Source of the DNA: Candidatus Wolframiiraptor sinensis
Lineage (GTDB): Archaea > Thermoproteota > Nitrososphaeria_A > Caldarchaeales > Wolframiiraptoraceae
Assembly: GCA_023261815.1 (NCBI GenBank)
Contig: JALNKA010000001.1
Span: 97,347 to 161,346, forward strand
DNA: 64,000 bases
Direction: 5' to 3'
The position numbers and the translations under genes were made by a program. This document shows, in pieces, positions 19,398 to 50,063 of the stretch. Each line of letters begins with the position of its first letter. The stretch's first letter is position 1. The notes beneath the pieces were generated by a model. The model saw nothing but the letters and a program-made list of their open reading frames with translations. It did no database searches and had not been told where the DNA came from.

Positions 19398-21704
19398 TTA
19401 GTCAGCCTCCAGATATCCGGCGGCATAAACTTGACCAACGGCGGTTCCACCATCTCCAGGTGGAATCGCCTCATTCGCTCGGATCCTGAGCCCCGAGGCG
19501 CGCTCTATCGCCGATAATATTATGCGGTTGACCGCGGCCCCACCTGAGATGCATATAGTTTTAACACCCAGCTCGCGTGCTTTCTCGGCCGCGGCGAGCC
19601 CGAGGCATTCTCCCAGCACGTATTGCGCCGTGTAGGCTAGATCATGTCTTGAGTTGTTGTCAAGATTCTCCACAAGGGCTCTCATGATCTCGCCGGTCAT
19701 TATGATGAGCGCGCCGCCCTTATCGGAGATGAAGTTATCTAAGCTCTCAATTATCGGCTCTCCGCCATGGGACGCCTCCTCCAGCATTATCGCCGGCTCA
19801 CCCTCATATGTTCTCTCGAAGCAGAGGTTTAGGAGGGCTGAAACGCTGTCCAAGAACCTGCCGGTGCTGGATGTCATGGGCCCCCTTCTCTGCCTGATCT
19901 GGGATAGAACAGCATTGAGCTCCTTGGCCCCATGCTTGAGCCCTCTTAGGAGGCCGCGCTTCCGAATGAACAATTCAACTTCATCTAAATCCATGAACTT
20001 GGAGAGAATTGATGCGAGCATTCTGACGGGTCTGATAGCTGCCAGGTCTCCGCCGGGCATAAGCGAGTATTCTAGGAATCCGGCGCGCTTGAATGCTCCA
20101 TCAGCCCATGTCAAGATCTCGCCTCCCCAGATTGCTCCATCAAGCCCGTAGCCCGCGCCGTCGATCATTATGCCCACAGCAGGCTCCTCTGGGTCGTGGC
20201 CCATCTCAGCCATGACGGAGGCGAAGTGAGCTAAATGATGTTGAACCAGCCTCAGCTCGAGCCCATTGCCGGACGCGTATTTCTCCGCGGCCTTCCTTGA
20301 ATGATAGGCTGGATGAAGATCAGCTGCGATTATGGACTTCCTCTCCTTCAGGCCATAGCACTCCGCGAGGAACTCTAGGTTGCTGATATGCTCCTCGAGC
20401 ACCTTGGGGTTATCCATATCCCCGGAGTATGGGGCTAAAATTATCTTGTCGTCGAATCCAACAGCGCCATTAGTCTCGAGATCTCCTCCAAATGCTATTA
20501 CGGGCTTCCTGAGATTATGCCTGAGCTTGAGAATTCTCGGAGCATAACCTCTCCCATATCGTAGGATCACGAGGCCGCCGTGTGTCGGCCTAACAACAGA
20601 GTCGTCAACTCTGTGAACTATCCTCCTATTATGGGTTAAGATGTAGTCAGCTATGCTCGTGAGCTCCCTTAGCCTCGAGTCATCGCTTATCATCGGGTCG
20701 CCGTGAACATTCCCGCTGGTCATCACGAGGAACTTATCCCTGGTCTCCATGAGGAGCAGGTAATGGAGCGGAGTATATGCGAGCATTATTCCGAGGCTAC
20801 GAAGCGATGGGGCCACGTAGTCGGAGACAGGGCAGCCCTCCCTCCTCGGGAGGATTATTATGGGCTTGATGAATCCGGAGAGCAGCTCGATCAAGTCATC
20901 GGGTATCTCGACTAGCTTACTCGCGACCTCCAGGTTGAGCGCCATTATCGCGAAAGGTCTCCTAGGCCTTCTCTTCCTCCTCCTGAGCTCCGACACGACA
21001 TCATCATCGCTCGCGAGGCAGGCTATATGGTAACCGCCAATTCCCTTAACCGCGACGATCATCCCCTCATCGATGAGCCTCGCCGCCTCACTCAGCGGAT
21101 CTTCGACCTCAACTCTCTCCAGATTCCTATCTAGGAGGAATAGCTTGGGGCCGCATCTAGGGCAGCTTATCCCCTGAGCATGATATCTCCTCTCATTCCA
21201 GAGATCATTATACTCGCTTAAGCACTCGCCGCATAATGGGAAGTCCCTCATCGCGGTATTCTCCCGATCATAGGGCGGCCTGTAGATCATCGAGTACCTG
21301 GGCCCGCACCAGGCGCAGCTGTTGAATGGGTACCTATACCACCTGCTCGCGGGGTTCACTACCTCCTCCAAGCAGTGATTGCATGCCGCAATGTCCTGCG
21401 GAATCTCCGAGGCCATAACTCTCTCACTGCCGCTATCGAGAATCATGAAGTCTTGGAAGCCCGCTGGCTCCAGCTCCTCGATCCTCACGACCTCGAGCTT
21501 GGCCGGCGGAGGATGCTTACTCCGAAGCAGCCTGAGGAACTCATTAACGCGATCATCCTCCGACTCGATGACAATCTCGACCTCGCCGCCGCCGAGATTT
21601 CTCACATATCCCCTCACGCCCGCGATCTTCGCTATTCTCTTGACGAAGGGCCTGAATCCCACGCCCTGAACCATCCCAGTAACGTAGATCCTCAAAGCTC
21701 TCAT
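19398..21704 (-). CDS. hypF: [NiFe] hydrogenase maturation carbamoyltransferase HypF
   Basis: Acylphosphatase domain, two Zn-finger CxxC pairs, and YrdC and Kae1-like domains (768 aa). Confidence 0.9.
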   Translation of the reverse strand: MRALRIYVTGMVQGVGFRPFVKRIAKIAGVRGYVRNLGGGEVEIVIESEDDRVNEFLRLLRSKHPPPAKLEVVRIEELEPAGFQDFMILDSGSERVMASEIPQDIAACNHCLEEVVNPASRWYRYPFNSCAWCGPRYSMIYRPPYDRENTAMRDFPLCGECLSEYNDLWNERRYHAQGISCPRCGPKLFLLDRNLERVEVEDPLSEAARLIDEGMIVAVKGIGGYHIACLASDDDVVSELRRRKRRPRRPFAIMALNLEVASKLVEIPDDLIELLSGFIKPIIILPRREGCPVSDYVAPSLRSLGIMLAYTPLHYLLLMETRDKFLVMTSGNVHGDPMISDDSRLRELTSIADYILTHNRRIVHRVDDSVVRPTHGGLVILRYGRGYAPRILKLRHNLRKPVIAFGGDLETNGAVGFDDKIILAPYSGDMDNPKVLEEHISNLEFLAECYGLKERKSIIAADLHPAYHSRKAAEKYASGNGLELRLVQHHLAHFASVMAEMGHDPEEPAVGIMIDGAGYGLDGAIWGGEILTWADGAFKRAGFLEYSLMPGGDLAAIRPVRMLASILSKFMDLDEVELFIRKRGLLRGLKHGAKELNAVLSQIRQRRGPMTSSTGRFLDSVSALLNLCFERTYEGEPAIMLEEASHGGEPIIESLDNFISDKGGALIIMTGEIMRALVENLDNNSRHDLAYTAQYVLGECLGLAAAEKARELGVKTICISGGAAVNRIILSAIERASGLRIRANEAIPPGDGGTAVGQVYAAGYLEAD

Positions 21705-21759
21705 GAGGTGCCCGGTGGAGAATGGTATCGGGGAGAATAAAAACTAGATCGGAGACCCC

Positions 21760-23058
21760 TCATTCATTGATTATCCTCAGCTTGATAACGTGGACTGAGC
21801 ACGAGATGCATGGATCATAGTTCCTTATCGTCATCTCCACAATCCGCTGCGCAGTCTCCGGCGGCCCTTTCACGATCAGATCCCCAACCTTGAATATGTC
21901 CTCCTCCATCGCCATGTAGTTCTGGGTTGTCGGCGGGATGATGTTCGCGTAAACTATTCTGCCCAGCTCATCTATCCTGTAGCGGCGATAAAGCATCCCC
22001 CTTGGAGCCTCGACTATCGCCGCCGCCTCACCAGCCCTCACCCTCGCATCAACGTATGGCGTCTGCGGCTCGGAGTACTCCTCAACGAGCCTCCCAACCT
22101 CGATTATCGAGTGAAGATTCTCGGCGGCCCTCGCAACGATGCTCTGATAAGTATTCTTGAGCGGAGCCCTATAGCCCGCCGCCTCGAGAACATCTCTAAC
22201 CTCGGGTGCTAGGAGGTCATAGTTTAGGTTGAATCTCGCGATGGGGCCCGTGATGTAGGGCTTGCCGTTCCTCAGCCTGTAATGGAGCCCATTCGAGTAC
22301 ATCTTTTGCTCGACGGTGATGTTCTCCTCGAAGGAGTCCTCGGGAAACTCCCAGCCAAGATTATTCGCGACCAATCCCTCAAGTATCGGATATTCCTTTC
22401 TGCCTTTCAGGGACATTAGTGTCATGTCGTACTGGATGTCAGGCAGATCCATGTTGAGCACGAATTCCAAGAGCTCTTCCCCCTTCCTCCTGATCTCCTC
22501 ATAGTTGCGTGATAATGGCTCAAGCTCCTCCTTTCTGATGATCCTATAGAGCCCTCCAATCCTGAAGCCTATCGGATGGATTGCTCTGCCGCCGATTATC
22601 TCTATTGCTCTATTGCCCCAGTCCCTTACGGCGATCGCGTTCCTGACGAGGTTGGGGTAATCCTTCGCCATCTCGAGCGCCGAGTGATATCCGAGGAAGT
22701 CCGGCGCATGGAGGAAGGCGAAGTGCAGGACATGACTCTCAATCCACTCGCCGTAAAAGGCTATTTTTCTCAGCACCTGTATCTCCTCCGGGACATTTAT
22801 CTCGAGTATCTTCTCCATGGCCCTGCAAGCAGCGAAGATATAGGCCAGCGGGCATATCCCGCAGATCCTCGCCGTTATATCAGGCGCCTCAAGATATGAT
22901 CTTCCACGGAGAAATGCCTCGAAGAATCTGGGAGGCTCGAATATATTGACCTCGACGTAGTCTATCTTGCCGTTCTTCACTCTTACCCAGACTCCTCCTT
23001 CGCCCTCGACCCTCGCCAGCTGGCTGACTTTTATCTCGAAGCTCTTATCCCCGCTCAT
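21760..23058 (-). CDS. hydA: sulfhydrogenase (group 3b [NiFe] hydrogenase) alpha / large subunit
   Basis: RICGICP at the N-terminus and DPCISCSVH at the C-terminus, which are the Ni-Fe ligand motifs. Confidence 0.85.
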   Translation of the reverse strand: MSGDKSFEIKVSQLARVEGEGGVWVRVKNGKIDYVEVNIFEPPRFFEAFLRGRSYLEAPDITARICGICPLAYIFAACRAMEKILEINVPEEIQVLRKIAFYGEWIESHVLHFAFLHAPDFLGYHSALEMAKDYPNLVRNAIAVRDWGNRAIEIIGGRAIHPIGFRIGGLYRIIRKEELEPLSRNYEEIRRKGEELLEFVLNMDLPDIQYDMTLMSLKGRKEYPILEGLVANNLGWEFPEDSFEENITVEQKMYSNGLHYRLRNGKPYITGPIARFNLNYDLLAPEVRDVLEAAGYRAPLKNTYQSIVARAAENLHSIIEVGRLVEEYSEPQTPYVDARVRAGEAAAIVEAPRGMLYRRYRIDELGRIVYANIIPPTTQNYMAMEEDIFKVGDLIVKGPPETAQRIVEMTIRNYDPCISCSVHVIKLRIINE

Positions 23059-23830
23059 ACCTCTCTAGGAACCTCCTTAAGGGCTCAGACCAGCTACTAA
23101 AATTCCTCAACTTGAGGATGACCTCCTCCCTTGGAAGCCCGATCTCCTCGAATCCCCTAGCGAGCGCCTCGGGCTTCGGGTCGATCATCGGGCCAAAGCA
23201 CCCATAGCATCCGCGAGCATAACTTGGGCAGAGGGCGCCGCATCCCTCAACCATTATCGGCCCGAGGCATGGTGTGCCTCGTGACACCATCACGCAGACA
23301 TTTCCCCTGCGCTTGCATTCTTGGCATAGGCTCTCGAGCCTGTGATAGGGCCTCTTCCCGACAAGCACCTGCTTCAAGACGCTCAGGAGCTGGAGCCTAT
23401 TAACTGGGCAGCCGCTGACCTGATAATCCACCTTAATGTGCTCGGATATCGGGGTGGTCTTATCAAGGCTGTTAATCCACTCGGGCCTGGGGTAAACTTG
23501 TCTGACGACATCCCCATGATCCATCCAGTTTCTCAGCGACTGAGGCCCGCCATGGACTGCGCAGGTGCCTATCGGGATCACGATCTTCGAGTTTCTCCTG
23601 ATGCTCTTTACAACCTCCATCTCGTGGGGCGTTGGGATCGATCCCTCGATTAAAGCGACATCATAGGGCCCTGGATCAATCCTGCTGCTGGCCTCGAGGA
23701 AATACGCGATCTCGACCTTCTCAATTATCGAGAGCAGGTCTTCTCCTAGGTTTATCAGCTCATCTTGGCATCCGCTGCATGAAGAGAATTTGAAGACCGC
23801 CAGCCTCAGCTTTCCACCATTCCTGCTCAT
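23045..23830 (-). CDS. hydD: sulfhydrogenase delta / [NiFe] small subunit
   Basis: SCSGCQ, GTCA and GCP cluster-binding motifs. Confidence 0.8.
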   Translation of the reverse strand: MSRNGGKLRLAVFKFSSCSGCQDELINLGEDLLSIIEKVEIAYFLEASSRIDPGPYDVALIEGSIPTPHEMEVVKSIRRNSKIVIPIGTCAVHGGPQSLRNWMDHGDVVRQVYPRPEWINSLDKTTPISEHIKVDYQVSGCPVNRLQLLSVLKQVLVGKRPYHRLESLCQECKRRGNVCVMVSRGTPCLGPIMVEGCGALCPSYARGCYGCFGPMIDPKPEALARGFEEIGLPREEVILKLRNFSSWSEPLRRFLERYERG

Positions 23831-23833
23831 ATC

Positions 23834-24661
23834 TCATCCACCCAGAAGTATTTTTTTAATGAGCCAGTACGGGAACACGGGTCCATTCTTGCGAACGAAG
23901 TAGGGGCCCACCTGGCAGTGGCCGCATAGACCGACTCCGCATTTCATCCTCCTCTCCAGGGAGAGGTAGATTTGATTCTCCTTAAACCCGACTTCCTCGA
24001 GGGCCTTGACCGTGAAACGCATCATTATCTCGGGGCCGCAAACGAGCGCAATAGTCTTTTCAATATTTATCCTAGCCATGGGTATGAGCTCGGTGACGAC
24101 GCCGACGTTATCCCTCCAAGTTTCATCGGGGTGATCAACCGTTAGCAGGAACTCTGTGTTCGGTATCTCCCTATATCGGTCGAACTCATAGCGGTAGAGA
24201 AGGAGGTTAGGCGTCCTCGCACCATAAAGTATGGTGAGCTTACCATATTTTTCTCGGTTTTTCTCGATCTCCAAAATGACCCCCCGGAGTGGAGCTAGCC
24301 CAATCCCGCCGGCCACTATGAGAACATCCTTTCCCACAAGCCTCTCAAGAGGCCAGCCCTTGCCATAAGGCCCCCTTAGGCCCACAATACTTCCCTCGCT
24401 CAGCTTAAACAGGTAATCTGTTAGGGCGCCCACGGACCTCACCGTCTGGACTATGATCCCGCCCTCTTCGCAGCCGCAGATGGAGACCGGTGTCTCGCCT
24501 ACGCCGGGAACATAAATCTCCGTGAATTGTCCGGGTTTAGGCTGCTCCACGAGCCCCCCATGAACTCTGAAGTAAAAGGTCTTGGTATCCGGCGTCTCCG
24601 GCACAACCTTAACTATCTCGGCTCTGCCAGGCGCCATGAGGGTTCTAACTATCTCTTGCAC
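23834..24661 (-). CDS. hydG: sulfhydrogenase gamma subunit (FAD/NAD(P)-binding with 2Fe-2S, PyrK-like)
   Basis: PyrK-like fold ending in a C-terminal CGVGLCGHC motif. GTG start. Confidence 0.8.
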   Translation of the reverse strand: MQEIVRTLMAPGRAEIVKVVPETPDTKTFYFRVHGGLVEQPKPGQFTEIYVPGVGETPVSICGCEEGGIIVQTVRSVGALTDYLFKLSEGSIVGLRGPYGKGWPLERLVGKDVLIVAGGIGLAPLRGVILEIEKNREKYGKLTILYGARTPNLLLYRYEFDRYREIPNTEFLLTVDHPDETWRDNVGVVTELIPMARINIEKTIALVCGPEIMMRFTVKALEEVGFKENQIYLSLERRMKCGVGLCGHCQVGPYFVRKNGPVFPYWLIKKILLGG

Positions 24662-25739
24662 CTCGTCTCCACCTCCTTAACCACATCTCTCACAACCTGC
24701 CTGACATCTATTCCCGCGGGGCACCACGTTATACATCTGCCGCACCCCACGCAGCCGAACGTTCCAAATTGCCTAAGCCAGTACACGAACTTGTGAAGAA
24801 CCCAGTGCCTATACCTAGCATAGAGACTTTTCCTGAAATGTCCTCCCGCAACCTGCGCGTAGCTGTAGCTGTGGCATCCATCTCAGATTCTAATACGTTT
24901 CGCCGATCCATCGAGCTCCGGCTCATCGAGCACGTCGAAGCAGAAGCACGTGGGGCAGACCATGTTGCAGTTCGCGCAGCCGAAGCATTTCTCAGCAGTC
25001 TTCCTGTAAACCTCAGAATTCATCCCTATCTCAAGGGTTTCAGGGAGGTTTTCCAGCGTGAACTCAACTCGAGCTCTCTTGGACGCCTCCAGCATGAGTT
25101 CCTTAAACCGGTCAACCTGCTCATCCTCAGCCGGCCTGAGATTAAGCTCGCTGAGAACATCCACGCCAAGATCGCTTCCCGGCTGAAAGATGACGACGCC
25201 ATCGCCAATTCTGGTGTAGGCTATGTCAAATCCCTTGAACGCGAAGGGGCCGGTGCCCATGGTCGCGCAAAAACAAGTCCCGCCGGGCTCTACGCAGTTC
25301 TCAACTATGAGGAGCAGGTCCTTCCTAACTTTTCTGTAATACTCGTCTCCCAGCTCGCCTTGAACACCATCCATAATGCTTATCGCGGCGAGATCGCAGG
25401 GCTTTATGCCGAAGAAAGCCGTCTTAACAAACTCTAAGCTCGGGTACTCCACGCTCAGATCAGGCTTGATGACGAATAGGAGAAGCTCGGGGGGATATAG
25501 GAATCTCTTCGGCGAGTCCGGGCCGTTCCTGAACCTGCCACCATTATTGGCGACGCGATAATATCCGGGAGCCTGCTCATCCCCATAGCCGTAAGTAATC
25601 TCGTCAATGTCTCGAGCCTAATAGCTGAATCCACGAGCTTAGGCCCTATAACCCGATAACCCCTAGAAGTCACAGCCTTAAATAGCGCCCTAAGCTCATA
25701 CTCTATTCCAGAGTAAATCGGCCCACGAAACAACACTTG
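24649..25739 (-). pseudogene. hydB: sulfhydrogenase beta subunit HydB, with a 1-nt deletion near 25607-25616 and an in-frame TGA (24873-24875) at a conserved Trp position
   Basis: Frame A reads continuously as YRVANNGGRFRNGPDSPKRFLYPPELLLFVIKPDLSVEYPSLEF...CPTCFCFDV...RIRI-TGA-DGCHS...HWVLHKF...GCVGCGRCITWCPAGIDVRQV, ending at stop 24649. The N-terminal 45 aa (MLFRGPIY...SAIRLE) are in a different frame. Confidence 0.65.
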
Positions 25740-25747
25740 TCCCGGAA

Positions 25748-25765
25748 AGGTATAAAAGGTATAAA
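25748..25765 (-). promoter_or_regulatory. tandem direct repeat of AGGTATAAA, giving two TATA boxes upstream of hydB
   Basis: Two adjacent 9-bp copies. The distal copy is centred about 25 nt upstream of the hydB GTG/TTG start, consistent with a leaderless transcript. Confidence 0.45.
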
Positions 25766-25913
25766 GTTGTTATGATTTTAACTTTTCTTTTCTCAACGAT
25801 TCTAGGACTTCAAAATTGTTGCGAATTTGATAAGGTGGTGGCAGGAGGTCGTCCATAAACTGTGGCCACGACCCGCTCGACACTGTGGATGTGATTAAGA
25901 GATCTTTACCATC

Positions 25914-26902
25914 CTATGATTGGGCCATCATCAGCCCCTTCAAGTTCGCACTTTCCACACTCACCATGTCACGGCTCAATTTGACGTTCATGTCTATTAT
26001 TATCTCCGCGATCTCAGCTGAGAGCTCGGCCTGCCTCTTCATGCTCCATATAAACTGCGTGAAGTTCGGGCAAAGCACGTTCACATCACACTTAATCGAC
26101 TTATACCTTAGTTGGTCTACGAGCTCGCTCTCCCCGAATTCCAGGTCCTCGAAATACTTCCTTATGGCCTCATTGGCCAGCTTAACATCCCTCGAGAATA
26201 GGGCTTTCATGACTTTTTCGCGAATATCTCTGCACCGCTCATAATATTTCGTCAATTTTGAAGCGTTTCTTGATCCAGCTCAACCTCGCAAGTTAGTATC
26301 TTTAGGACGCTTCTGGCGCCTAGTTTGGATAAATCTGCCATCCTCTCGAGACAGTATCCCACTATCGCGAGGAAGGATATCTCTGAGGACCGCGTAACCC
26401 CGAGCTTCTCGGCAAAGCCTTTCTTCTTATGAGCTATCGAAAGCGCCCTGGAAAACAGGTAGTAGAGCCTATTGACCTCCTCATCCCTGATCATTACCGT
26501 TTTGGCCAGCTCCCGGTTTCCCTCGATGAACGCCCTGAAATACTCCTCTTGCATAGATGAGGCCAAATTACATATTCTCTCCAGAATCGAGTATATTGGA
26601 GACTTAAGGACATCCAGCATGCATTGTAGAATGACATGCTGCTCATTTTCATCCATTATGGAAACCCCGGTCAATAGTTTCGCCGCCTCGCGAATTTCCT
26701 TAATATGCCTATAATTCAAGCGGGTCTCCGAGGAGACCTCAATCAAATCGACACCGGCAATATAGCTTCCAACAATCAGCCTATGCAGGAGGCCGGGCTG
26801 ATCGCATAAATCCGCGTTTATCCTGCATGCTTCAAGAACGTAATCCGAGCCAGCCTGGGCGGGCCAAAGAATGAGCGAGCCATCATGAGCCTCCTCAACC
26901 AC
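25914..26902 (-). pseudogene. PhoU-domain protein (two PhoU repeats) split by a 1-nt deletion at the A-run 26255-26258
   Basis: PhoU repeat (ELAKTVMIRDEEVNRLYYLFSRAL...YCLERMADLSK) in ORF 26252..26902. The second repeat continues in ORF 25914..26255 in the -1 frame. Confidence 0.55.
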
Positions 26903-27037
26903 GAGGATATCCCCCCGCTGAAGGTTATGCTCCCTAACCCACCAATAAGGTAAAGATATCGCTTAGAGTCCCCTTACCGACACGCTGTATTTTGCGCTGC
27001 TCCATCATATCCATTAGATATATGATATATATCGAGT

Positions 27038-27080
27038 CCTCTTGATACTTATCCGATGTTCTCGGATAAGTATCAAGAGG
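27038..27080. promoter_or_regulatory. perfect 19-bp inverted repeat with a 5-nt spacer (CCTCTTGATACTTATCCGA-TGTTC-TCGGATAAGTATCAAGAGG)
   Basis: Read directly from the sequence. It sits at the 5' end of the nuoE-like gene, just downstream of an AT-rich divergent promoter region (TAGATATATGATATATATCGA). Confidence 0.7.
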
Positions 27081-27485
27081 AACGGGGAAAGGAATTCGGC
27101 GAATCTTATCGAGTCTTTGCAAAAGCTGCAGGAGAGATATGGGTTCTTGCCGAAGGACGCTCTAATGAAGCTTTCCAAGGATGTGGGAGCTCCTTTGAGC
27201 AGGATATTCGGCGTCGCGACTTTCTATCACCAGTTTAAGCTGGAGTCGCCTGGAAAAGTCCTGATCTCGGTTTGCATGGGAACAGCATGCCATCTTAGGG
27301 GCGATGCCAACAACTACGAGTTCCTGAGGAGGTTTTTAAGAATAGCACCAGGCAAATCCGTCAGCGATGATGGCCTATTCTCCTTAGAGAAGGCTAGGTG
27401 CTTCGGCTGCTGTAGCCTGGCCCCAGTAGTGAGAGTTGGCGATAAGCTCATCGGCAAGGCCACGCCCAGGAGCTTCAGAGAATAA
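27042..27485 (+). CDS. NuoE/HoxE/HydC-like thioredoxin-fold [2Fe-2S] protein; the start is uncertain
   Basis: GVATFYHQF...CMGTACHLRG...CFGCCSLAPV motifs. The annotated TTG start lies inside the palindrome. An alternative ATG at 27056 in another frame gives a NuoE-like MFSDKYQEERGKEF start, which would need a frameshift. Confidence 0.7.
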   Translation: MILIRCSRISIKRNGERNSANLIESLQKLQERYGFLPKDALMKLSKDVGAPLSRIFGVATFYHQFKLESPGKVLISVCMGTACHLRGDANNYEFLRRFLRIAPGKSVSDDGLFSLEKARCFGCCSLAPVVRVGDKLIGKATPRSFRE

Positions 27486-30147: not shown

Positions 30148-30184
30148 TTCGTGAACGCCTCATGGTGAGTGAGGTGATCGAGAA

Positions 30185-36659: not shown

Positions 36660-36666
36660 ATGCCAT

Positions 36667-37107: not shown

Positions 37108-37108
37108 G

Positions 37109-39731: not shown

Positions 39732-39733
39732 GG

Positions 39734-40326: not shown

Positions 40327-40327
40327 G

Positions 40328-42455: not shown

Positions 42456-44452
42456 TGAGCCTCGAGCTCTGGGCTATGCAGGCCTGGGCTAGCTGGATTA
42501 TACCGCTGGTCGGCGCACTGCTGACGCCACTTCTCGCCAGGATCGGCGGCAGGGCGAGGGATTATGGAGCCGTGGCATTCTCATTCCTCGCGATGCTGAT
42601 GACCTTGAGCCTGATACCGCTATTGTTCGAGGATGTTAGCTGGCCTTTGAGGAGCCAGGTTTCATGGGTGCTTCTGCCGGAAGCGCCGGCGCTCTCGGAG
42701 ATAAAGGCCGGGATTATGCTCGACCCGCTCAGCATAATAATGGCTAACATCGTCTCGGCGGTCAGCTTCCTGATAATGGTCTACTCTCTCGGATACATGC
42801 ACGGGGACCCGGGCCTCACGAGATACTGGTTCTTCATGAACTTCTTCATCGCGAACATGCTCCTCCTAGTGCTCGCCGACAACCTCATTCTCATGCTGGT
42901 CGGCTGGGAGGGCGTGGGCCTCTGCAGCTACGCGCTCATAGGCTACTGGTATCAGGACTCGAGGGGGGGCTGGCTGCACTACTGGGTCGGCGAGCCGCCA
43001 GAAACTTACCCGCCATCACACTGCGGCATGAAGGCCTTCATGGTAACTAGGCTCGGAGATCTCTTCATGATCGCGGGGATACTGATCCTAGCGGCCGCCG
43101 TCAAGACCGTGAGCTTCCCAGAGCTCATACACGCCGACTCGCTAGCCCCAGCGGACCTTAGATGGCTCCTCCCGATCTCCCTCATACTGATCCTCGGCGG
43201 GGCCGTGGGCAAGTCGGCTCAGCTGCCGCTAATGGAGTGGCTCCCGGACGCGATGGCCGGCCCATCATCCGTCAGCGCGCTGATCCACGCTGCCACGATG
43301 GTTAAGGCCGGGGTATACCTCGTCGCGAGGCTCTTCCCCATAGCTGTCAGCTGGAGCGCGAGCCTGCCGGCGACGATGAGCTTCTTCTATACGGTCATGT
43401 GGATCGGGGCTTTAACGGCATTCATCGCCGCTAGCCAGGCAATAGTCTCCACCGAGCTCAAGAAGGTTCTAGCATACTCGACCGTCAGTCAGATAGGATA
43501 CATGATGATGGCCCTCGGCGCCGCCGGCCTCTCGGCCGAGATAATAAGCGGATATATGGCCTCGATATTCCACATGATGAATCACGCTGTCTTTAAGGCT
43601 GCACTCTTCCTCGCGGCCGGCTCGATAATTCACGCATCAGGATCGAGGTTCCTGAGGGATATGGGCGGCCTCCGGAAAAGCATGCCGATAACGTTCTACA
43701 GCACGCTTCTCGCGACCCTAGCTCTCATGGGCCTACCCCCCTTCGGCGGATTCTGGAGCAAAGACCTAGTCCTCTCAGCAGCATTATCCTCCGGAGAATA
43801 TGCGGTCTTCATTCTCGGCTTAGCCACGGCGATCCTAACAGCATTCTACAGCATCAGGATGATAGGGCTGGCCTTCTACGGCGGGAAGCGCGAGAAGGCA
43901 CATGAGGCGCCGAGGATCATGTGGGCGCCATACTTGATTCTAGCGGCTCTCAGCCTCGCGCTGGGCCTGATCGCCCCTATGCTCGAGGGATTCCTCGAGG
44001 AATCCCTATCACGCATCCTACCCATCCACGCGCATAAGGTGGGCGAGACTCATGGAGCGCAGTTCATCATCCCGCTGGCATCGATTATCGCCATCATCGT
44101 TGGAGCGGCTCCAGCCTACCTGATCTACGTGAGGAGGGTTAAGAGCTCGGAGGAGATAGTCGAGAGGCGCGGCTACATGAGGGTGCTCAGGACACTACTG
44201 GTTAGAAGATACTACATCAATGCCTTCTACTACAGGGCCATCGCCTATCCCTCAATAAGGCTCGGTTGCGCGATCCAGAGAGCATTCGAGTCCAGGGTGA
44301 TAGAGGGAATGAATGAAGCGCTATCCATCGGAGCGAGAAGATTCTCTGACATCATTAGGAGGGTGCACACGGGCTTATTGAACCACTATGTTATTGGGCT
44401 CATCCTCGGTGCCCTAATACTCATAATCCTAATCCTGGCTGGAGGTGCCTGA
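42452..44452 (+). CDS. NuoL/ND5-like antiporter subunit with a long C-terminal extension
   Basis: 666 aa with the WLPDAMAGPSSVSALIHAATMV motif and a C-terminal amphipathic arm. Confidence 0.8.
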   Translation: MMSLELWAMQAWASWIIPLVGALLTPLLARIGGRARDYGAVAFSFLAMLMTLSLIPLLFEDVSWPLRSQVSWVLLPEAPALSEIKAGIMLDPLSIIMANIVSAVSFLIMVYSLGYMHGDPGLTRYWFFMNFFIANMLLLVLADNLILMLVGWEGVGLCSYALIGYWYQDSRGGWLHYWVGEPPETYPPSHCGMKAFMVTRLGDLFMIAGILILAAAVKTVSFPELIHADSLAPADLRWLLPISLILILGGAVGKSAQLPLMEWLPDAMAGPSSVSALIHAATMVKAGVYLVARLFPIAVSWSASLPATMSFFYTVMWIGALTAFIAASQAIVSTELKKVLAYSTVSQIGYMMMALGAAGLSAEIISGYMASIFHMMNHAVFKAALFLAAGSIIHASGSRFLRDMGGLRKSMPITFYSTLLATLALMGLPPFGGFWSKDLVLSAALSSGEYAVFILGLATAILTAFYSIRMIGLAFYGGKREKAHEAPRIMWAPYLILAALSLALGLIAPMLEGFLEESLSRILPIHAHKVGETHGAQFIIPLASIIAIIVGAAPAYLIYVRRVKSSEEIVERRGYMRVLRTLLVRRYYINAFYYRAIAYPSIRLGCAIQRAFESRVIEGMNEALSIGARRFSDIIRRVHTGLLNHYVIGLILGALILIILILAGGA

Positions 44453-44455
44453 AAA

Positions 44456-45940
44456 ATGATGGACGCGCATCACCTGCTCCTCCAATCCATAATCGCCCCT
44501 CTCATAGCCTCGCCGATAATCCTGGCACTCGGCGGCAGGTTCGGGAGAAAGGTTGGCTGGGTCGCGCTGATCCCGCTAGTCTATTCCGTGTTATGCCTAA
44601 TCACCGCGGGATACGTGGTCCATGAATCCGGCTCGCCACTCCAGGCATCCTATCCATGGGTTCAGCTCCTCGGAGACTTCATACTCCTCTTCGACGGCTT
44701 GAGCGGCCCAATCGCCATGACGATCGCTGTGGTCGGGCTCCTAGCATGCATCTACTCGATCGCCTACATGGATCTCCGCGATGGATGGGGAGGCTACTTC
44801 TCCTTATACCTCCTCTTCGACGCTGGCATGCTAGGTGCAGCTCTCTCCGCGAACCTTGCAGCCTTCTTCATCTTCATCGAGCTCATGCTGATAGCATCAT
44901 GGCTCCTGATAGCATTATGGGGCGGTGAGGATAGATGGCGCGCGGCCCTCAAATACTTCCTCTACACTAAGGCGGGAGCCTTGATCCTCTTGGCAGGCAT
45001 AGGGCTAACATACTCCATCGTGGGAACGCTGAACATCCTCGAGCTCGCCTCGAAGGCCGCCGGCCTGAGCTCTTCCATGATCTCCCTAATAGCCTCGCTG
45101 ATGATAGTAGGCTTCCTCGTTAAGATGGCGATCTTCCCGCTCCACTCCTGGCTTCCCGACGCCTACGTCCAGTCTCCAGCCCCCGTTACGGCGATATTCT
45201 CGGCTGGGACCGGCATAGGGGGCTACGCTGCTCTTAGGATAATCTACACCGCCTTCCCGCAAATGATCTCGCAGAGGGGCTTCATGCTCGCGCTGCTCGC
45301 CCTCGCCCTGATAACGATGATCTACGGCGGATACCTGGCCCTCGCGCAGAACAATCTGAAGAGGCTTCTAGCGTATTCCAGCATAAGCCAGATGGGCTAC
45401 ATGCTTCTCGGCGTAGCCTCGGCTTCAATCATAGGGCTGGCCGGAGCCGCGCTGATATACGTGGCCCACAGCCTCTCGAAGGCTATACTTTTCATGATCT
45501 CGGGAATGCTCTCTAGGACCATTGGCACAGATAACTTGGACGAGCTCGGCGGCCTAGCCGGAAGAATGCGAGCCATGAGCATAGCCTTCATGGTGGGATT
45601 CCTGAGCCTGATGGGCTATCCGCCGCTCCTCGGATTCTGGGGGGAGCTCCTCATCTTCGCCGGATCGATATACTCAGCGCTCCACCCCCCATTCGATGCG
45701 CTGAGGCTCGTGCTAACGATGATCGCGATAATCTTCTCGCTGATCACCGCGGGATACGGGCTCTGGGCAATAAGAAGAAGCTTATTTGGGGAGGAGTCCG
45801 AGGCCGTGAGAAGAAGCGGGCCCGAGCCGCGGCTCATGCTAGCGCCCATAATCGCCTCCGCAATACTCTTGGCGGCTCTGGGAATCTACCCGACCATGTT
45901 GACGAAGCTCCTTGAAACCTTGGCCTTAATCCTCGGCTAG
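44456..45940 (+). CDS. NuoN/ND2-like antiporter subunit
   Basis: LHSWLPDAYVQSPAPVTAIFSAG motif. Confidence 0.75.
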   Translation: MMDAHHLLLQSIIAPLIASPIILALGGRFGRKVGWVALIPLVYSVLCLITAGYVVHESGSPLQASYPWVQLLGDFILLFDGLSGPIAMTIAVVGLLACIYSIAYMDLRDGWGGYFSLYLLFDAGMLGAALSANLAAFFIFIELMLIASWLLIALWGGEDRWRAALKYFLYTKAGALILLAGIGLTYSIVGTLNILELASKAAGLSSSMISLIASLMIVGFLVKMAIFPLHSWLPDAYVQSPAPVTAIFSAGTGIGGYAALRIIYTAFPQMISQRGFMLALLALALITMIYGGYLALAQNNLKRLLAYSSISQMGYMLLGVASASIIGLAGAALIYVAHSLSKAILFMISGMLSRTIGTDNLDELGGLAGRMRAMSIAFMVGFLSLMGYPPLLGFWGELLIFAGSIYSALHPPFDALRLVLTMIAIIFSLITAGYGLWAIRRSLFGEESEAVRRSGPEPRLMLAPIIASAILLAALGIYPTMLTKLLETLALILG

Positions 45941-46150
45941 GCTCATGGCCTCCTCGATCGCTCTCAGCATCTCGAGAGCGCTCTTCTCATCTAGGACCCT
46001 TATCGCATATCCCGCGTGGACTAGGACGTAGTCGCCCACTCCGGCGTCAACCATCGCCAAGATAACCTCCCTCCTAACACCATTGCCGAAGTCCACGACC
46101 CCGATATCCCCCTTTACCTCGACGACCTTGCCGGGAACTGCGTAGCACAT
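45926..46150 (-). CDS. hypC: hydrogenase maturation chaperone HypC
   Basis: MCYAVPGKVVEV N-terminus in a 74-aa protein. Confidence 0.85.
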   Translation of the reverse strand: MCYAVPGKVVEVKGDIGVVDFGNGVRREVILAMVDAGVGDYVLVHAGYAIRVLDEKSALEMLRAIEEAMSLAED

Positions 46151-46187: not shown

Positions 46188-46595
46188 CTAATGGATGGGC
46201 ATAATCATGTAGGTCAGCTGCTTTATCCTCCCAATACCCCTCAGCCTTCTAACAAGCTCCTTGATCTCGGAGGCCCTACCCCGGACGGCCACGACGAGCA
46301 GGCAATCCTCTTCCGAGAGATGAATGTGGAGGCTCGATGGTATGAGCTTCAGGAACTCGTGCTGGGCATCGGTCAGCTTCTCCTCGATGCCATGCTCCTC
46401 GTGAGAGTAGTGGATGAGAATCGCGCCGGCAACCTCCTCATCAGCAATCCTCCAGGAGTTCATCGCGATGAAGCCCCTCACAGCTTCTTGAATCGCCTGA
46501 GATCTAGACGCTATCCCAAGATCCCCGATAATCCTATCGAATGTCTTCAGGAGGTCCTCGGGAAAGGAGACGCCCGTCCTAATAATCCTCCCCAT
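46188..46595 (-). CDS. nikR: nickel-responsive regulator NikR
   Basis: Ribbon-helix-helix N-terminus and a Ni-binding C-domain (HYSHEEH...HIHLSEEDC). Confidence 0.8.
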   Translation of the reverse strand: MGRIIRTGVSFPEDLLKTFDRIIGDLGIASRSQAIQEAVRGFIAMNSWRIADEEVAGAILIHYSHEEHGIEEKLTDAQHEFLKLIPSSLHIHLSEEDCLLVVAVRGRASEIKELVRRLRGIGRIKQLTYMIMPIH

Positions 46596-46645: not shown

Positions 46646-47071
46646 TCAGGGACCCTCGACGAGCTCCTCCTCGAAGAGCTCCGCCAAGCTCATTCTCATG
46701 ATCCTCCTCGCGTCCTCTTCTGCCGAGTTCAGCGATCTCTCAAGCTCGGATAAAATGCTCCTCCTAGCTCTGAGCTCAAGCCTTCTAAGGCCCAGCGCGA
46801 ACACCGCTTTCAGATCTGGCCCCTCAACGATCTCTATATTCAGCTTTCCGAGCGTGCACCCGGTGATGTACTGGATGCCGTCCGCGAAGCACGTGTACGG
46901 CGTGGAGATCTTTGGGACGATTATCCTCGCCCTCATCTTGAAGGGATCGTATCCCAGCGCCTCGATCGCCCTGAGCCCAGCCCTGACGCCTAGAGCTAGG
47001 AATGGGCCGATGTGGCAGTGGAGCATTGACGCTTCCTCCAGAATCCTATCGAGAATGTTCGATGGCTTCAT
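46646..47071 (-). CDS. FmdE/FwdE-domain protein
   Basis: MLHCHIGPFLALGVRAG and CFADGIQYITGCTLGK motifs. Confidence 0.65.
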   Translation of the reverse strand: MKPSNILDRILEEASMLHCHIGPFLALGVRAGLRAIEALGYDPFKMRARIIVPKISTPYTCFADGIQYITGCTLGKLNIEIVEGPDLKAVFALGLRRLELRARRSILSELERSLNSAEEDARRIMRMSLAELFEEELVEGP

Positions 47072-47889
47072 GCACGCCTCCCCGCTGCCAAGCTCGCCCT
47101 CAGCCTAGAGTAGGCTGACGCGGCCAGCAAAATAATCAGGGCAGCGATCGTTATACATGAACCCGCCGGCAGATCATATAGGAAACTCATTAAGAGGCCC
47201 ATGGAGGCCGATGCGGATCCAAAGATCCATGAGGCGGCGATAATGCCCTTCATGTTAGCCTGTAGCTGGAGCGAGGCCGCGGCCGGCACGTAGAGAAGCG
47301 AGAAGACGAGAAATCCCCCCGTCATCCTGAGGGCCAGGGTCACCGTCATCCCCGCTATCACGAGCATCGCGTACTTGTATGCCTTGACGTTAACTCCCTC
47401 AGCCTCGGCCAGCCTGATGTCGAATAATATCGAGCTTATCTTCCCCCAGAAGATGATTAGGAGGGACAGGACGATCATCGATGCGAGGAGGAGGTAAGCT
47501 ATGTACGTCGGCCTGATCGCGAGGATGCTGCCCCAGAGGAGCTGGCCCACGCTCTCGATCATCAGCGCGGGCCCCGGCGCCGAGATTATGAATATGAAGG
47601 CCAGGGCATTATACAGGGAGAAGAGGGTCATCGAGGCAAGGTCGATGGGTATTCTGAGGTGGTCTGCCAGCGGCCCAAGTATCATCGCGGTCACTATTGC
47701 GAGGAGCATCGCAAGAGAGATTATGTCGGCGCCGAGGGCGAGGGCTAGAGCTGATCCGGCTAGAGCCGCGTGAGCCATCGAAAAAGCCATGGTTGTGAGC
47801 TTGAGCCTGTTGCATATGGCCCCCACCACGCCGCATAATCCTCCGGCCAGCACGCCGCCGATTATCGAGCTAATGAGTAGCATGAGCAT
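47068..47889 (-). CDS. metal ABC transporter permease (ZnuB/TroC-like)
   Basis: ABC-3 family topology and sequence. Confidence 0.8.
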   Translation of the reverse strand: MLMLLISSIIGGVLAGGLCGVVGAICNRLKLTTMAFSMAHAALAGSALALALGADIISLAMLLAIVTAMILGPLADHLRIPIDLASMTLFSLYNALAFIFIISAPGPALMIESVGQLLWGSILAIRPTYIAYLLLASMIVLSLLIIFWGKISSILFDIRLAEAEGVNVKAYKYAMLVIAGMTVTLALRMTGGFLVFSLLYVPAAASLQLQANMKGIIAASWIFGSASASMGLLMSFLYDLPAGSCITIAALIILLAASAYSRLRASLAAGRRA

Positions 47890-48586
47890 CCCTCATGATC
47901 ACCTGACTCACTCGCCCATCCACCACCCGGATAACCAAGTCGGCGTCCATAGAGGAGTAGTCCAAGTCATGGCTGACGAGCAGTATAGTGCAGCCGCCTC
48001 TCAGGAGGCCCGGGAAGATCTCGCCGACTATGTATGAGCGTGTTTCTAGGTCTATCGCGCTGAAAGGCTCATCCAGCAATAGCAGCTTGGGCTCCCGGAC
48101 GATGGCCCTCGCGAGCAACACCTTCTGCTGCTGGCCGCCGCTGAGCTTACCAAATGGCTTATCAGCGTGATCCATCATCCCGAGCAGCTCAAGTGCTCGA
48201 TCGACCTTCTTCCAGCCGCTCTCCAAGAGCCTGCCAGAGAAGCTGCTTGACGCCAGCCCCATCGCGACAACTTCCCTGGCCGTGAAGGGCTCTATTGGGG
48301 GCTTCATGAAGTCCTGGGGGAGATATGATGATAGGGCCCTAGCCTTCGAGGCCTCTGCGGGGATATTGTACCCGAGGACCTTTATCCTCCCGCTACGCGG
48401 CTTCAATAATCCGAGAATAGTCTCGAGGAGCGTGGTCTTGCCGGCGCCATTCGGCCCGACGATCAGCGCCAGAGACCCGACGGGTATCCTCAGCGTGACA
48501 TCCCTTAGAGCGGGCCTCTTCTCGCCATAATAGTATGTTGAGACCGAGTCCAATTCCACGGCATTTTGTTCTAAGCCTTTCTCCAT
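47870..48586 (-). CDS. metal ABC transporter ATP-binding protein (ZnuC/TroB-like)
   Basis: Walker A (GPNGAGKTT), signature (LSGGQQQ) and Walker B (LLLLDEP) motifs. Confidence 0.85.
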   Translation of the reverse strand: MEKGLEQNAVELDSVSTYYYGEKRPALRDVTLRIPVGSLALIVGPNGAGKTTLLETILGLLKPRSGRIKVLGYNIPAEASKARALSSYLPQDFMKPPIEPFTAREVVAMGLASSSFSGRLLESGWKKVDRALELLGMMDHADKPFGKLSGGQQQKVLLARAIVREPKLLLLDEPFSAIDLETRSYIVGEIFPGLLRGGCTILLVSHDLDYSSMDADLVIRVVDGRVSQVIMRDAHATH

Positions 48587-49536
48587 CTCCTCACCACCAG
48601 GACATATGCCAGGATTATGGATTCGGCCGCAGCCACGGCCGCGAGGCAGTAGCTCAGAGCACGGTAGAACTCGGCCTCCGCCCTAGCCCTCGATAAATCC
48701 CTCCTAACCTCGAGCACGTCAAGCGAGCTGAGGAGCTTTTCCGCATTCCTCCTCATCAAGTCTATCAGGGTCTTGGTCTCAGGCTCGACTCCCGGGAAAT
48801 TGGATAGGACCACGTGGACCGCGCCGATCATTCCCGCGAGGTTTTCTCCGAGCTCGATGCCGCTCTGTAGATTGCTTACCACCACGGCGACATCATTCTC
48901 TCTCCCGATTTTTACTAGTTTCTCGACGTCTGCGGATGATACCTTCTCGGGCGGGCCGAAGGATCCCGCGATCTTGAAGCCGAGCCACTCGACGAAATCC
49001 CTTTGCCACTCCATCACGATGACGTTAATCGAGGAGGCGCCCCTATTCCCAGCCTCATTCATTATCCTCCGCGCCGCCTCATCGAGCTCCATAAGCCTCT
49101 GCTCGAGCCTAGCGGACACATCTAGCCCCAGCCTAGAGCTAAGCGCGCCCGCAACCTCCTCATAGTATCTTCTCACTCCATTGGGCGTGGACCAGCCGCC
49201 CGAGATCTTGATTAGCTCCGCGCTCGATCCGGAGGCCTCGTAGAGCTGGCTAAGCCATCCTTCCATGCCGTGATAAAAGATCAGCTTGGCCCTCGAGATC
49301 GCGTAGACGTCACTCGGCTTCACGTCATAATGTGCCGGGCAGATCGTCGGGCTGACCAGGATGATGACCTCGACATCATCCCCGGCCAGGTCCTCGATTA
49401 CGCTGCCGAGAACGCTGGTTGTCGCAACCACTAAGGGCTTTTCGCCGGCAACCGGCTGGATAGCGGGGAGCCAGCTGGCGAGCACCAGCAGGATCAGGAT
49501 TATGATCGGGGGAGCCGCCCCTCTTAGTAACACCAT
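48571..49536 (-). CDS. metal ABC transporter substrate-binding protein (TroA/ZnuA-like) with an N-terminal TM anchor and a C-terminal hydrophobic tail
   Basis: Cluster-A-1 SBP-like fold in operon context. Start taken at the internal Met after the poorly coding 5' extension. Confidence 0.65.
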   Translation of the reverse strand: MVLLRGAAPPIIILILLVLASWLPAIQPVAGEKPLVVATTSVLGSVIEDLAGDDVEVIILVSPTICPAHYDVKPSDVYAISRAKLIFYHGMEGWLSQLYEASGSSAELIKISGGWSTPNGVRRYYEEVAGALSSRLGLDVSARLEQRLMELDEAARRIMNEAGNRGASSINVIVMEWQRDFVEWLGFKIAGSFGPPEKVSSADVEKLVKIGRENDVAVVVSNLQSGIELGENLAGMIGAVHVVLSNFPGVEPETKTLIDLMRRNAEKLLSSLDVLEVRRDLSRARAEAEFYRALSYCLAAVAAAESIILAYVLVVRRWRKA

Positions 49537-49583
49537 GATGGGATAATGGTAACATGCTGTATTTAACCATCGACGCGCGAGGA

Positions 49584-50063
49584 TCACGTAATCTCATAGA
49601 GGTATATTTTGTGGGGTCTCCCGTTAATGCTCGATCTCATGATCGTGATCTCGGAGGGTTTTAGGGATGGAATGGGGAAGTCGTGGCAGATTATTCTCGA
49701 GCCCCTTCTGAGCGAGAGGAGCTTCGGCTTGAGGTCTTTCAGCGTCTCCGGGAGCAGGTAAAGCGTGATGACATCGGCGGCGGAGAAATCGAATTCGTAG
49801 AGGTTTCCATGGATTATTCTCGCCTTATCGTGGAGAAGCCTATCGCGTATGATGCTCATGGATTTCCTGAAGAGATTCTCATCAAGCTCGACGCCGATTG
49901 CCCTGCAGCGATAATCCTCGGCCGCGGACACCACTATCCTGCCATCGCCGGATCCAAGATCGATGAGAAGCTCGTCGGGCCTCGGGTCCGCGATCGCCAG
50001 CATCCTCCTAACCACGTCAAGAGGTGAAGGGACGAAGGGGATTCTTCCCCCACCCCTTCTCAT
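49584..50063 (-). CDS. small class I SAM-dependent methyltransferase
   Basis: LIDLGSGDGRIV motif I. Confidence 0.6.
   Translation of the reverse strand: MRRGGGRIPFVPSPLDVVRRMLAIADPRPDELLIDLGSGDGRIVVSAAEDYRCRAIGVELDENLFRKSMSIIRDRLLHDKARIIHGNLYEFDFSAADVITLYLLPETLKDLKPKLLSLRRGSRIICHDFPIPSLKPSEITIMRSSINGRPHKIYLYEIT

Follow-up and report, generated by a model that had tools for sequence, protein, structure and literature searches.

How much of a dense archaeal hydrogenase cluster is still in working order, and which metal its importer brings in, are the questions raised by the window analysed here, a stretch of 64,000 nucleotides from Candidatus Wolframiiraptor sinensis (assembly GCA_023261815.1, contig JALNKA010000001.1, positions 97,347 to 161,346). 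In approximately 30 kb of this window, three [NiFe]-hydrogenase operons stand together with most of the maturation genes and a metal importer linked to NikR. The cluster is probably a lineage-specific clustering of three known kinds of [NiFe] hydrogenase with maturation and metal-supply genes, only partly functional in this uncultivated Caldarchaeales species, the group-4 enzyme being sustained and the cytosolic enzymes decaying.

Gene content and related loci

Gene calls were checked by Pfam and NCBIfam scans of the window open reading frames (ORFs; most ORFs of at least 100 aa) together with a six-frame motif scan. An earlier note, made from the sequence alone, had listed the genes of the cluster, and every one of them was recovered in its place by Pfam and NCBIfam. 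The three large subunits share only 22–29% pairwise identity, and both CxxC nickel–iron motifs and a C-terminal tail were present in 3/3. The three hydrogenases of that inventory stand as three distinct operons; their function had been overstated, with the beta gene of the group 3b enzyme dead and the conduit subunit gene of the hybrid enzyme frameshifted.

Two sister loci served for comparison, namely L095 (GCA_053498715.1), whose fusion protein is 77% identical to the window copy, and L096 (GCA_053997695.1), whose group-4 large subunit is 79% identical. Against the sister, the ratio of nonsynonymous to synonymous substitution rates (dN/dS) was 0.04–0.12 for every intact gene, and the intact cluster genes appear to have been under purifying selection over the long term. 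Synonymous divergence (dS) exceeded 1; with dS saturated and all genes at 0.04–0.12, the ratio is uninformative as a test of relaxed selection on the group 3b genes. The window proteins recur with identical sequence on 15–28 contigs of hot-spring metagenome-assembled genomes (MAGs; GCA_0388..., GCA_0232525... and the Logan series), named "Nitrososphaerota archaeon" at NCBI. The JAW* accessions of the matching MAGs sit inside the accession range of the Tengchong hot-spring MAGs of PMC11094006.

Broken genes of the cytosolic hydrogenases

Frame analysis, tblastn and nucleotide alignment to the sister genes revealed that hydB, which encodes the beta subunit of the group 3b sulfhydrogenase (24652–25736, minus strand), is a pseudogene. 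It carries a 10-nt deletion near 25605–25611 and an in-frame stop, TGG to TGA, at 24883–24885. The gene is intact in both sisters (364 aa in L095, 363 aa in L096). An assembly error behind the frame breaks could be ruled out: the stretch 24600–27000, running from hydB to the PhoU-domain gene described below, recurs at 100% identity in nine other contigs of independent assembly and at 99.9% in one more, and was seen in at least two MAG accession series and a Logan assembly. The hydB gene of the group 3b enzyme is thus dead, and the four-subunit set is incomplete here.

The other three genes of the operon are intact on the same strand. The large subunit gene hydA (21760–23058; motifs RICGIC and DPCISCSVH) had Pyrococcus sulfhydrogenase I alpha as its best PDB match (1.4e-63), and its top NCBIfam matches were ShyA/HydA, under the equivalog cutoff. 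It has no adjacent protease gene, in contrast to the relative L099. The delta gene hydD (23045–23830) and the gamma gene hydG (23834–24661) align over their full length with the sister genes, share the Pfam set Oxidored_q6, NAD_binding_1 and DHODB_Fe-S_bind, and have dN/dS values of 0.07–0.09.

Next to hydB, a gene for an AbrB/MazE-like and PhoU-domain regulator (25914–27005, minus strand) was found by tblastn to be a pseudogene in three frame segments, with an insertion of 1 nt near 26961 and a deletion of 1 nt near 26257. The earlier note had seen a PhoU-domain pseudogene with the same start; its end lies at 27005 instead of 26902, and its product is an AbrB plus PhoU regulator. The orthologue in L095 is intact, at 364 aa, with an AbrB/MazE-like DNA-binding domain and PhoU domains. 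It had also been thought unrelated to the hydrogenase operons. In L095 it is divergent from the hybrid operon, and in L096 both are missing; judged by this co-occurrence, the gene is probably not unrelated to the hybrid operon. A general partnership was considered and rejected, as the PhoU-domain gene is absent at ten distant hybrid loci and occurs only in the close sister.

The region between this regulator gene and the NuoE-like gene that opens the hybrid operon has shrunk to approximately 37 bp, against approximately 160 bp in L095. What is left of this divergent promoter region holds a perfect 19-bp inverted repeat, CCTCTTGATACTTATCCGA-N5-TCGGATAAGTATCAAGAGG, with a 5-nt loop (27038–27080), which spans the only in-frame start of the NuoE-like gene (TTG at 27042). 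No such repeat was found in the corresponding 160-bp intergenic region of L095; possible readings are an operator, a 5' hairpin and the scar of a rearrangement.

A second decayed phosphate-related gene was observed in the 64-kb window, a PHO4-family phosphate transporter gene (1500–2560, plus strand) broken by at least two frameshifts and adjoining a PhoU_div gene (2601–3257). Gene callers left the PHO4 region empty in another MAG (L103).

The hybrid operon lies on the plus strand. It starts with hydC (NuoE-like; 27042–27485, start uncertain; Pfam 2Fe-2S_thioredx) and the NuoF-like hydB' (true start about 27577, to 29523; Pfam Complex1_51K, NADH_4Fe-4S and Fer4), both placed with the help of the sister alignment. 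The third gene, hydD', for the NuoG-like conduit (29530–30188), is frameshifted: a 1-nt deletion near 30096 replaces the last approximately 23 residues, and the present ORF stops at 30147. Past the deletion, the old frame retains 68% identity to the sister and closes with an ATGA overlap with hyhL; therefore, the lesion is read as recent. The shortened 205-aa NuoG-like gene was called in 4/4 MAGs checked, and the subunit has lost its native C-terminus. The intact hyhL (30185–31474) encodes a group 3 [NiFe] large subunit with RICGPC and DPCLGCATH, and its best PDB match is the alpha subunit of sulfhydrogenase I (6.7e-60). The last gene is a hyhS::hydA fusion (31471–32859), in which Pfam recognised a [NiFe] small subunit, 2x[4Fe-4S] and an [FeFe] H-domain of approximately 200 aa.

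With this make-up, the enzyme that the earlier note called chimeric is the hybrid of Greening et al. 2024 (PMC11216029), which combines group F [FeFe] with group 3f [NiFe]. Ten distant loci from Desulfurococcales, Thermofilum and Bathyarchaeia were compared; the five-gene order is kept in eight, and in two loci, both from Bathyarchaeia, no hyhL was detected to separate the NuoG-like gene from the fusion. In these distant lineages the hybrid operon is mostly not beside hyp genes.

The fusion protein has approximately 37 full-length relatives, beyond which its C-terminal half matches bacterial [FeFe] hydrogenases. An AlphaFold model (AF2) had a mean predicted local distance difference test score of 79, with 85–97 in the C-terminal domain, and Foldseek placed HydA of HydABC and CpI on top (E 1e-17 to 1e-15). 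The H-cluster of CpI has C300, C355, C499 and C503 as its cysteine ligands. Within the H-domain family, C350 (P2, TPCxAKK), C426 and C430 (P3, CPGGCxxGGGQP) and Ser315 are all invariant. Ser315 aligns at CpI Cys300 and M314 at the C299 position; the Cys299 proton relay is missing. The active bifurcating HydA1 of A. woodii (PDB 7Q4V) likewise has Ser at the Cys300 position, in the motif TSCSPGW, and TSCSPGW instead of TSCCPGW, i.e. Ser at the CpI Cys300 ligand, was found in 78/83 bacterial HydA matches. This bears on how the missing P1 cysteine of the archaeal fusion is read. The H-domain appears trimmed and unusual, yet under selection, and its status as a relic is not established.

The absence of HydEFG maturases had been taken as a sign of a non-catalytic H-domain. 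The absence itself holds: neither Pfam nor the six-frame motif scan found HydE, HydF or HydG in the window, where the only radical-SAM protein is one of 252 aa at 59575–60333, nor were they found in approximately 8–10 kb of contig on each side. What was drawn from it carries little weight, because most archaea having active [FeFe] enzymes are without HydEFG and one fused protein was active (PMC11216029); moreover, P2, P3 and Ser315 are invariant. In that study two fused proteins, Thermoplasmata homologues, were artificially matured, one being a rapid H2 producer and the other of low activity. The lesions in the two cytosolic operons are recent, because the sister species are intact and the long-term dN/dS is 0.04–0.12, and these NAD(P)-linked enzymes may be in the course of being lost or may work at reduced function.

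Membrane-bound group-4 hydrogenase

Analysis by Pfam, together with NCBIfam NuoB, NuoL and NuoM matches above cutoff, revealed a 12-gene group-4 [NiFe] hydrogenase operon at 36330–45940 on the plus strand. It consists of a nuoA-like gene (36330–36659), nuoB (36667–37107), nuoC (37109–37579), the NuoD-like large subunit gene (37576–38769), nuoH (38766–39731), nuoI (39734–40084), nuoJ in two pieces (40081–40585), nuoK (40582–40902), an antiporter-like gene (40896–42455), NuoL (42452–44452) and NuoM (44456–45940). The 11-subunit set of respiratory complex I, namely NuoA, B, C, D, H, I, J, K, L, M and N, is present in one operon. The 666-aa subunit matches the NuoL model end to end (513 bits against a cutoff of 407), the 494-aa subunit scores above the NuoM cutoff, NuoB is also above its own, and NuoD and NuoH fall just below theirs.

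FpoD and NuoD were the best models for the large subunit, and HycE, MbhL and Nqo4 its best PDB matches. The protein carries RICGIC and DPCICCSAR followed by a 30-aa tail, and both Cys motifs and the cleavable tail are kept in 118/120 relatives. A NuoD of respiratory complex I would be without the nickel–iron cysteines; here four of four are kept, and therefore the complex is read as a hydrogenase, not complex I. All genes of the operon are full length against L096, and the same 12-gene order preceded by HycI occurs in L096 and in a further locus, L097. The motifs, the tail and the upstream HycI together mark the complex as a genuine group-4 hydrogenase built on the full complex-I scaffold. It is intact, the only one of the three enzymes that is so in every gene. 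Assignment to HydDB subgroup 4g, taken from literature on related archaea (PMC11094006), is a guess by analogy.

The large subunit shares a 90% identity cluster with W. gerlachensis and W. allenii proteins, which places the host in the Wolframiiraptor group of the Caldarchaeales, and the W. gerlachensis orthologue was published as a ferredoxin-dependent type-4 "Mbh-Mrp" of 10 subunits (Buessecker et al. 2022, PMC9246946). The enzyme is already known, and the Mbh label understates its complex-I character. The complex would oxidise reduced ferredoxin from fermentation, producing H2 and pumping ions.

Maturation genes

The maturation genes hypC, hypD, hypE and hypF are intact. hypF, for the carbamoyltransferase, lies at 19398–21704 on the minus strand, with five HypF Pfam domains and a sequence cluster named HypF. 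A hypD-hypE-hycI unit on the same strand consists of hypD (34497–35654/35675; Pfam HypD 3.9e-123), hypE (33410–34474; Pfam AIRS and AIRS_C) and, last, hycI1 for a HyaD/HybD-like maturation endopeptidase (32856–33350; Pfam HycI, NCBIfam TIGR00072); hypE and hypD are 87–91% identical to the sister genes. A second HycI-type endopeptidase gene, hycI2, stands directly upstream of the group-4 operon (35761–36252, plus strand; TIGR00072 above cutoff), with the hycI equivalog model as its best specific NCBIfam match at 92.8 bits, under the 119-bit cutoff. The hypC chaperone gene (45926–46150, minus strand; N-terminus MCYAVPG) scores above the TIGR00074 cutoff.

The two proteases are 24% identical to each other. 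Their proposed ties to different hydrogenases were borne out by the related loci: hycI1 co-occurs with the hybrid operon in L095 and both are missing in L096, and hycI2 lies upstream of the group-4 operon also in L096 and L097. The absence of hypA and hypB from the window was confirmed by Pfam on the scanned ORFs and by the six-frame motif scan; neither was found in approximately 8–10 kb of contig on each side, so that the HypABCDEF set is represented by C, D, E and F only. In the proposed pathway, HypCDEF would build the Fe(CN)2CO unit and HypA and HypB encoded elsewhere would insert nickel, after which HycI2 would cut the group-4 tail after the Arg of CSAR and HycI1 would serve the 3b-like HyhL.

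The NikR-linked metal importer

Next to hypC, at higher coordinates, five genes on the minus strand make up the metal-supply block. The nikR gene (46188–46595) carries RHH_1 and NikR_C domains and matches the NCBIfam equivalog with 111 bits against a cutoff of 105; four of four high-affinity nickel ligands (His3Cys) align with P. horikoshii NikR (2BJ1). The FmdE-domain gene (46646–47071; Pfam FmdE, PDB 2GVI 3.9e-7) encodes the motifs HCH and CFxDGxQxxTGC, and its product is a putative cytoplasmic metal-handling partner. The importer itself, assigned by Pfam, consists of an ABC-3 permease (47068–47889), an ATPase (47870–48586) and a ZnuA-family binding protein (48571–49536).

The binding protein belongs to the ZnuA fold family (PF01297, 5.6e-24); alignment to solved structures of ZnuA, PsaA or TroA succeeded for the N-lobe only. 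The NCBIfam AztC/AztB matches of the importer are far under cutoff (60 against 350 bits) and cover the N-lobe only. The binding-protein family is small, with 107 matches, those named by source being all archaeal. Its invariants are C66, P67, H69, D71 and E92, with H89 in at least 90% of sequences, and the C66/H69/D71/E92 pattern does not look, from the alignment, like the usual Zn/Mn ligand pattern.

Seven importer loci were compared (the window, L096, L099, L100, L101, L104 and L105). The FmdE gene stands in or beside the transporter genes in five (the window, L096, L100, L101 and L104), nikR is adjacent in 3/7, and [NiFe] hydrogenase genes are adjacent in 3/7. In L101 and L104 no nikR and no hydrogenase genes were seen within 6 kb, and the same holds for the shorter stretch covered in L105.

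A heptamer scan found a candidate NikR operator on the minus strand, the direct repeat aTGTTAC-N15-GTGTTAC (49527–49555), between a TATA-like box and the start codon of the binding-protein gene and overlapping that codon. Six RTGTTAC heptamers occur in the 64 kb, two of which are these, 22 bp apart. GTGTTAC is the published NikR consensus half-site (PMC545781). Scanning for half-site pairs over 1.46 Mb of loci, in four orientations and six spacings with at most 1 mismatch, gave 4 matches; the window, L099 and L101 each supplied one of them, the N15 direct repeat of the importer promoter, and the fourth was unrelated. The importer promoter of L104, outside the 1.46-Mb scan, has the N15 direct repeat with zero mismatches. 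In L105 (Bathyarchaeota B24, LUCB01000012.1) a perfect palindrome, GTATTAC-N14-GTAATAC, was found at 1083–1110, just upstream of the TATA-like box of the importer. Paired half-sites are present at the importer promoter in five loci in this way, as direct repeats in four and as a palindrome in one. In L105 the annotated start of the binding-protein gene (1294) is apparently approximately 140 nt too far downstream.

A search for the palindromic operator GTGTTAC-N13/14-GTAACAC gave no relevant window site with at most 3 mismatches, that for an E. coli-type NikR box gave nothing, and no NikR-type site with at most 2 mismatches was found at the hydrogenase or hyp promoters. Upstream of 49536, the candidate NikR box takes the form of the N15 direct repeat, not of the canonical palindrome. 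The importer is likely under NikR control, as the nickel ligands and the half-sites suggest, and nickel-bound NikR would repress it through paired GTGTTAC half-sites overlapping the transcription and translation start.

Modularity of the cluster

The gene order of L095 is hypF-hydADGB-AbrB/PhoU-hybrid-hycI-hypE-hypD, followed by an Opp-type transporter where the window has the group-4 block. In L096, hypF-hydADGB-hypE-hypD-hypC is followed by hycI and the group-4 operon, and these by nikR-FmdE-importer; this locus lacks a hybrid operon, hycI1 and a PhoU gene. From the gene content of the two loci, the cluster is therefore modular within the family. Going by the synteny, the hybrid operon is accompanied by hycI1 and the AbrB-PhoU gene, and the group-4 operon by hycI2 and the NikR-importer block. 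In L095 the transporter after hypD (14293–21389) is of Opp/Dpp type, with a 941-aa SBP_bac_5 protein, permeases and two oligo_HPY ATPases, and could be a NikABCDE-type nickel or peptide importer.

Weighing of the explanations

The favoured reading, a cluster in which the membrane enzyme is sustained and the cytosolic enzymes decay, has to be set against one in which all three hydrogenases are functional and, together with a nickel importer of their own, form a complete working H2 module; the frame breaks would then be tolerated, bypassed by recoding or irrelevant. The full length of the hydA, hydD, hydG, hyhL, fusion and NuoF-like genes, with dN/dS of approximately 0.06–0.10, would agree with it, as would a NuoG-like lesion confined to the C-terminal approximately 23 residues and a hydB stop codon that is TGA. 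However, hydB has two independent lesions, one of them a 10-nt deletion, and the 363- and 364-aa counterparts in both sisters are unbroken; two further lesions lie in the adjacent regulator gene, the promoter region is cut from approximately 160 to approximately 37 bp, and no recoding signal was seen, and we consider full function unlikely. Still less probable is that the region was horizontally acquired as a genomic island. Its modular content would fit such an origin: L096 lacks the hybrid operon, hycI1 and PhoU gene that the window shares with L095, and L095 has an Opp-type transporter in exchange for the group-4 block. Against this, guanine plus cytosine content is 0.50–0.59 over the whole window without a step at the cluster borders, nor was an integrase, tRNA or repeat boundary noticed. 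Synteny with sister species extends to both the hypF-hydADGB core and the group4-nikR-importer block, and gene order is conserved at a dS above 1, in keeping with vertical descent accompanied by local gains and losses. Because base composition is uniform, nothing marks the region as acquired. Several observations weigh against decay of the cytosolic enzymes and dedicated nickel supply as we read them. The loss of approximately 23 C-terminal residues from the NuoG-like protein may be tolerated; the intact HydG, HydD and HydA may function without HydB or with another partner; the hydB TGA might be read through at a low level, the 10-nt deletion still remaining; and the broken PHO4 gene outside the cluster suggests that some of the damage may be general genome decay, not a loss particular to the cytosolic hydrogenases. 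Neither hypA nor hypB could be located in the window or its flanks of approximately 8–10 kb. For the operator, the half-sites in the window are direct repeats, not the canonical palindrome; one of them coincides with codons 2–4 of the binding-protein gene, so that its conservation between the window and L099 may be coding; L101 and L104 are related to each other; and L100 has an adjacent nikR yet no detectable site.

The metal carried by the importer was weighed separately. The conserved NikR-type operator leads to a testable hypothesis, which we put forward tentatively, that the FmdE protein and the divergent ZnuA-family/ABC-3 transporter are an unrecognised archaeal NikR-controlled nickel uptake system feeding the [NiFe] hydrogenases, with a Cys/His-based site, FmdE as cytoplasmic nickel acceptor and a GTGTTAC half-site operator that allows direct repeats. 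The importer may instead carry zinc (or manganese or iron), its NikR-family neighbour being a zinc-responsive or general regulator and the proximity to hydrogenases being coincidental or reflecting zinc needs such as the zinc site of HypA; this is conceivable, and we hold it with similar reserve. It has in its favour the ZnuA/ABC-3 family of the components, with AztC/AztB and MntC as best NCBIfam matches, the L101 and L104 loci without nikR or hydrogenase genes within 6 kb and L105 likewise in its shorter stretch, and a precedent in Methanothermobacter, where NikR lies beside ZnuABC and a zinc-responsive regulator was proposed (Kaster et al. 2011, PMC3087415). It sits less well with NCBIfam scores far under cutoff and limited to the N-lobe, with a C-lobe that could not be aligned to ZnuA/PsaA-type structures and invariants C66, H69, D71 and E92 unlike the Zn/Mn pattern, with the exact His3Cys nickel site kept by NikR, with three loci that have nikR and three that have [NiFe] hydrogenase genes as neighbours, and with promoter half-sites equal to the NikR consensus half-site. 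Of the nickel-regulated, dedicated uptake suggested in the earlier note, NikR control has gained from the His3Cys ligands and the half-sites in five loci, and the nickel specificity of a ZnuA-type importer has not; for zinc there is the precedent just named. Should the importer prove specific for nickel, it would be a fourth archaeal nickel-uptake family, and FmdE-domain proteins would gain a function.

On the reading of a sustained membrane enzyme and decaying cytosolic ones, the cluster shows the layout of H2 metabolism in one uncultivated hot-spring lineage, a complex-I-shaped nickel-dependent enzyme beside its own protease, chaperone, regulator and importer; the loss of hydB and the damage to the hybrid with the membrane enzyme intact would show which hydrogenase the organism cannot do without. 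New here are the recurring lesions of the cytosolic hydrogenases, the full complex-I layout of the membrane enzyme and the conserved NikR-type operator on the FmdE/ZnuA-type importer. Apart from these points, the result is correct but ordinary annotation of known systems.

Other genes in the window

A TupA-like tungstate ABC transporter, with its binding protein at 55411–56340, permease at 54767–55453 and ATPase at 54105–54770, was observed beside a divergent regulator with helix-turn-helix and PBP_like domains (56417–57457; whole region 54105–57457), which fits the reported tungsten dependence of Wolframiiraptor. Oxidative-stress genes of an anaerobe are grouped at 10620–13575 (a flavodiiron protein, a ferritin-like protein, a peroxiredoxin and an Lrp/AsnC regulator), and a second ferritin/rubrerythrin-like protein is encoded at 52233–52727. 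A 531-aa GltD/NfnB/SudA-like protein (Fer4_20 and Pyr_redox_2; 15156–16751, plus strand) is encoded at a distance of 2.6 kb from the cluster; for W. gerlachensis a partner of sulfide dehydrogenase/Nfn type has been mentioned, and this protein may be that partner.

Comparison with known systems

The group 3b operon resembles that of P. furiosus sulfhydrogenase I (group 3b, HydBGDA; PDB 9NEZ/9E1J) in the best PDB match of its large subunit, in the four-gene order and in delta and gamma subunits with the same domain make-up, and differs in that its beta gene is a pseudogene. The hybrid operon shares with that of Greening et al. (Cell 2024, PMC11216029) the cluster of HydC, HydB, HydD, HyhL and HyhS (N-terminal)::HydA (C-terminal) and a C-terminal fold that matches [FeFe] hydrogenases, and Thermoproteia are named among the hosts of the enzyme in that paper. 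Unlike the published hybrid, it has an H-domain of only approximately 200 aa, the window family carries PMSEAE where TSCCP is expected, and in this species the HydD gene carries a frameshift and the regulator gene upstream is a pseudogene.

Like NikR-controlled nickel importers, the metal transporter has an adjacent nikR and NikR-type half-sites at its promoter, whereas it is homologous to none of the nickel families NikABCDE, Nik/CbiMNQO (NikMNQO), NiCoT and HupE/UreJ. Only three archaeal Ni/Co transporter families have been listed, none of ABC-3/ZnuA type (PMC2667541). With ZnuABC, TroABC and AztABC it has in common the ABC-3 permease and the cluster A-I type fold family of the binding protein, whose Cys-Pro-Ala-His...Glu pattern looks unlike Zn/Mn sites.

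The membrane enzyme is the orthologue of the W. gerlachensis Mbh-Mrp, for which ferredoxin-dependent, ion-pumping H2 production was proposed (PMC9246946). That paper likens the enzyme to Pyrococcus Mbh, whereas the window has NuoABCDHIJKLMN with true NuoL and NuoM. The composition of Pyrococcus-type Mbh (group 4d; 14 subunits, MrpEFG-like MbhA-C and a single MbhH) was not seen: no MrpEFG-like MbhA-C genes were found in the group-4 operon, and it encodes three antiporter-like subunits including NuoL, not one. Complex-I architecture and a NuoD with hydrogenase ligands are shared with the complex-I-like group 4 hydrogenases of Heimdallarchaeia (Appler et al. 2024, bioRxiv 10.1101/2024.07.04.601786), which have shorter membrane arms. 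The architecture and the ligand-keeping NuoD also agree with the hypothetical 11-subunit NiFe ancestor of complex I (Moparthi and Hägerhäll 2011, PMC3144371), proposed when NuoA and NuoJ had not been found in the hydrogenases known in 2011, and the operon, like that ancestor and the Heimdallarchaeia enzymes, is without NuoEFG. The membrane enzyme stands near this predicted 11-subunit nickel–iron ancestor of complex I, in a lineage that has an enrichment culture in which it could be studied.

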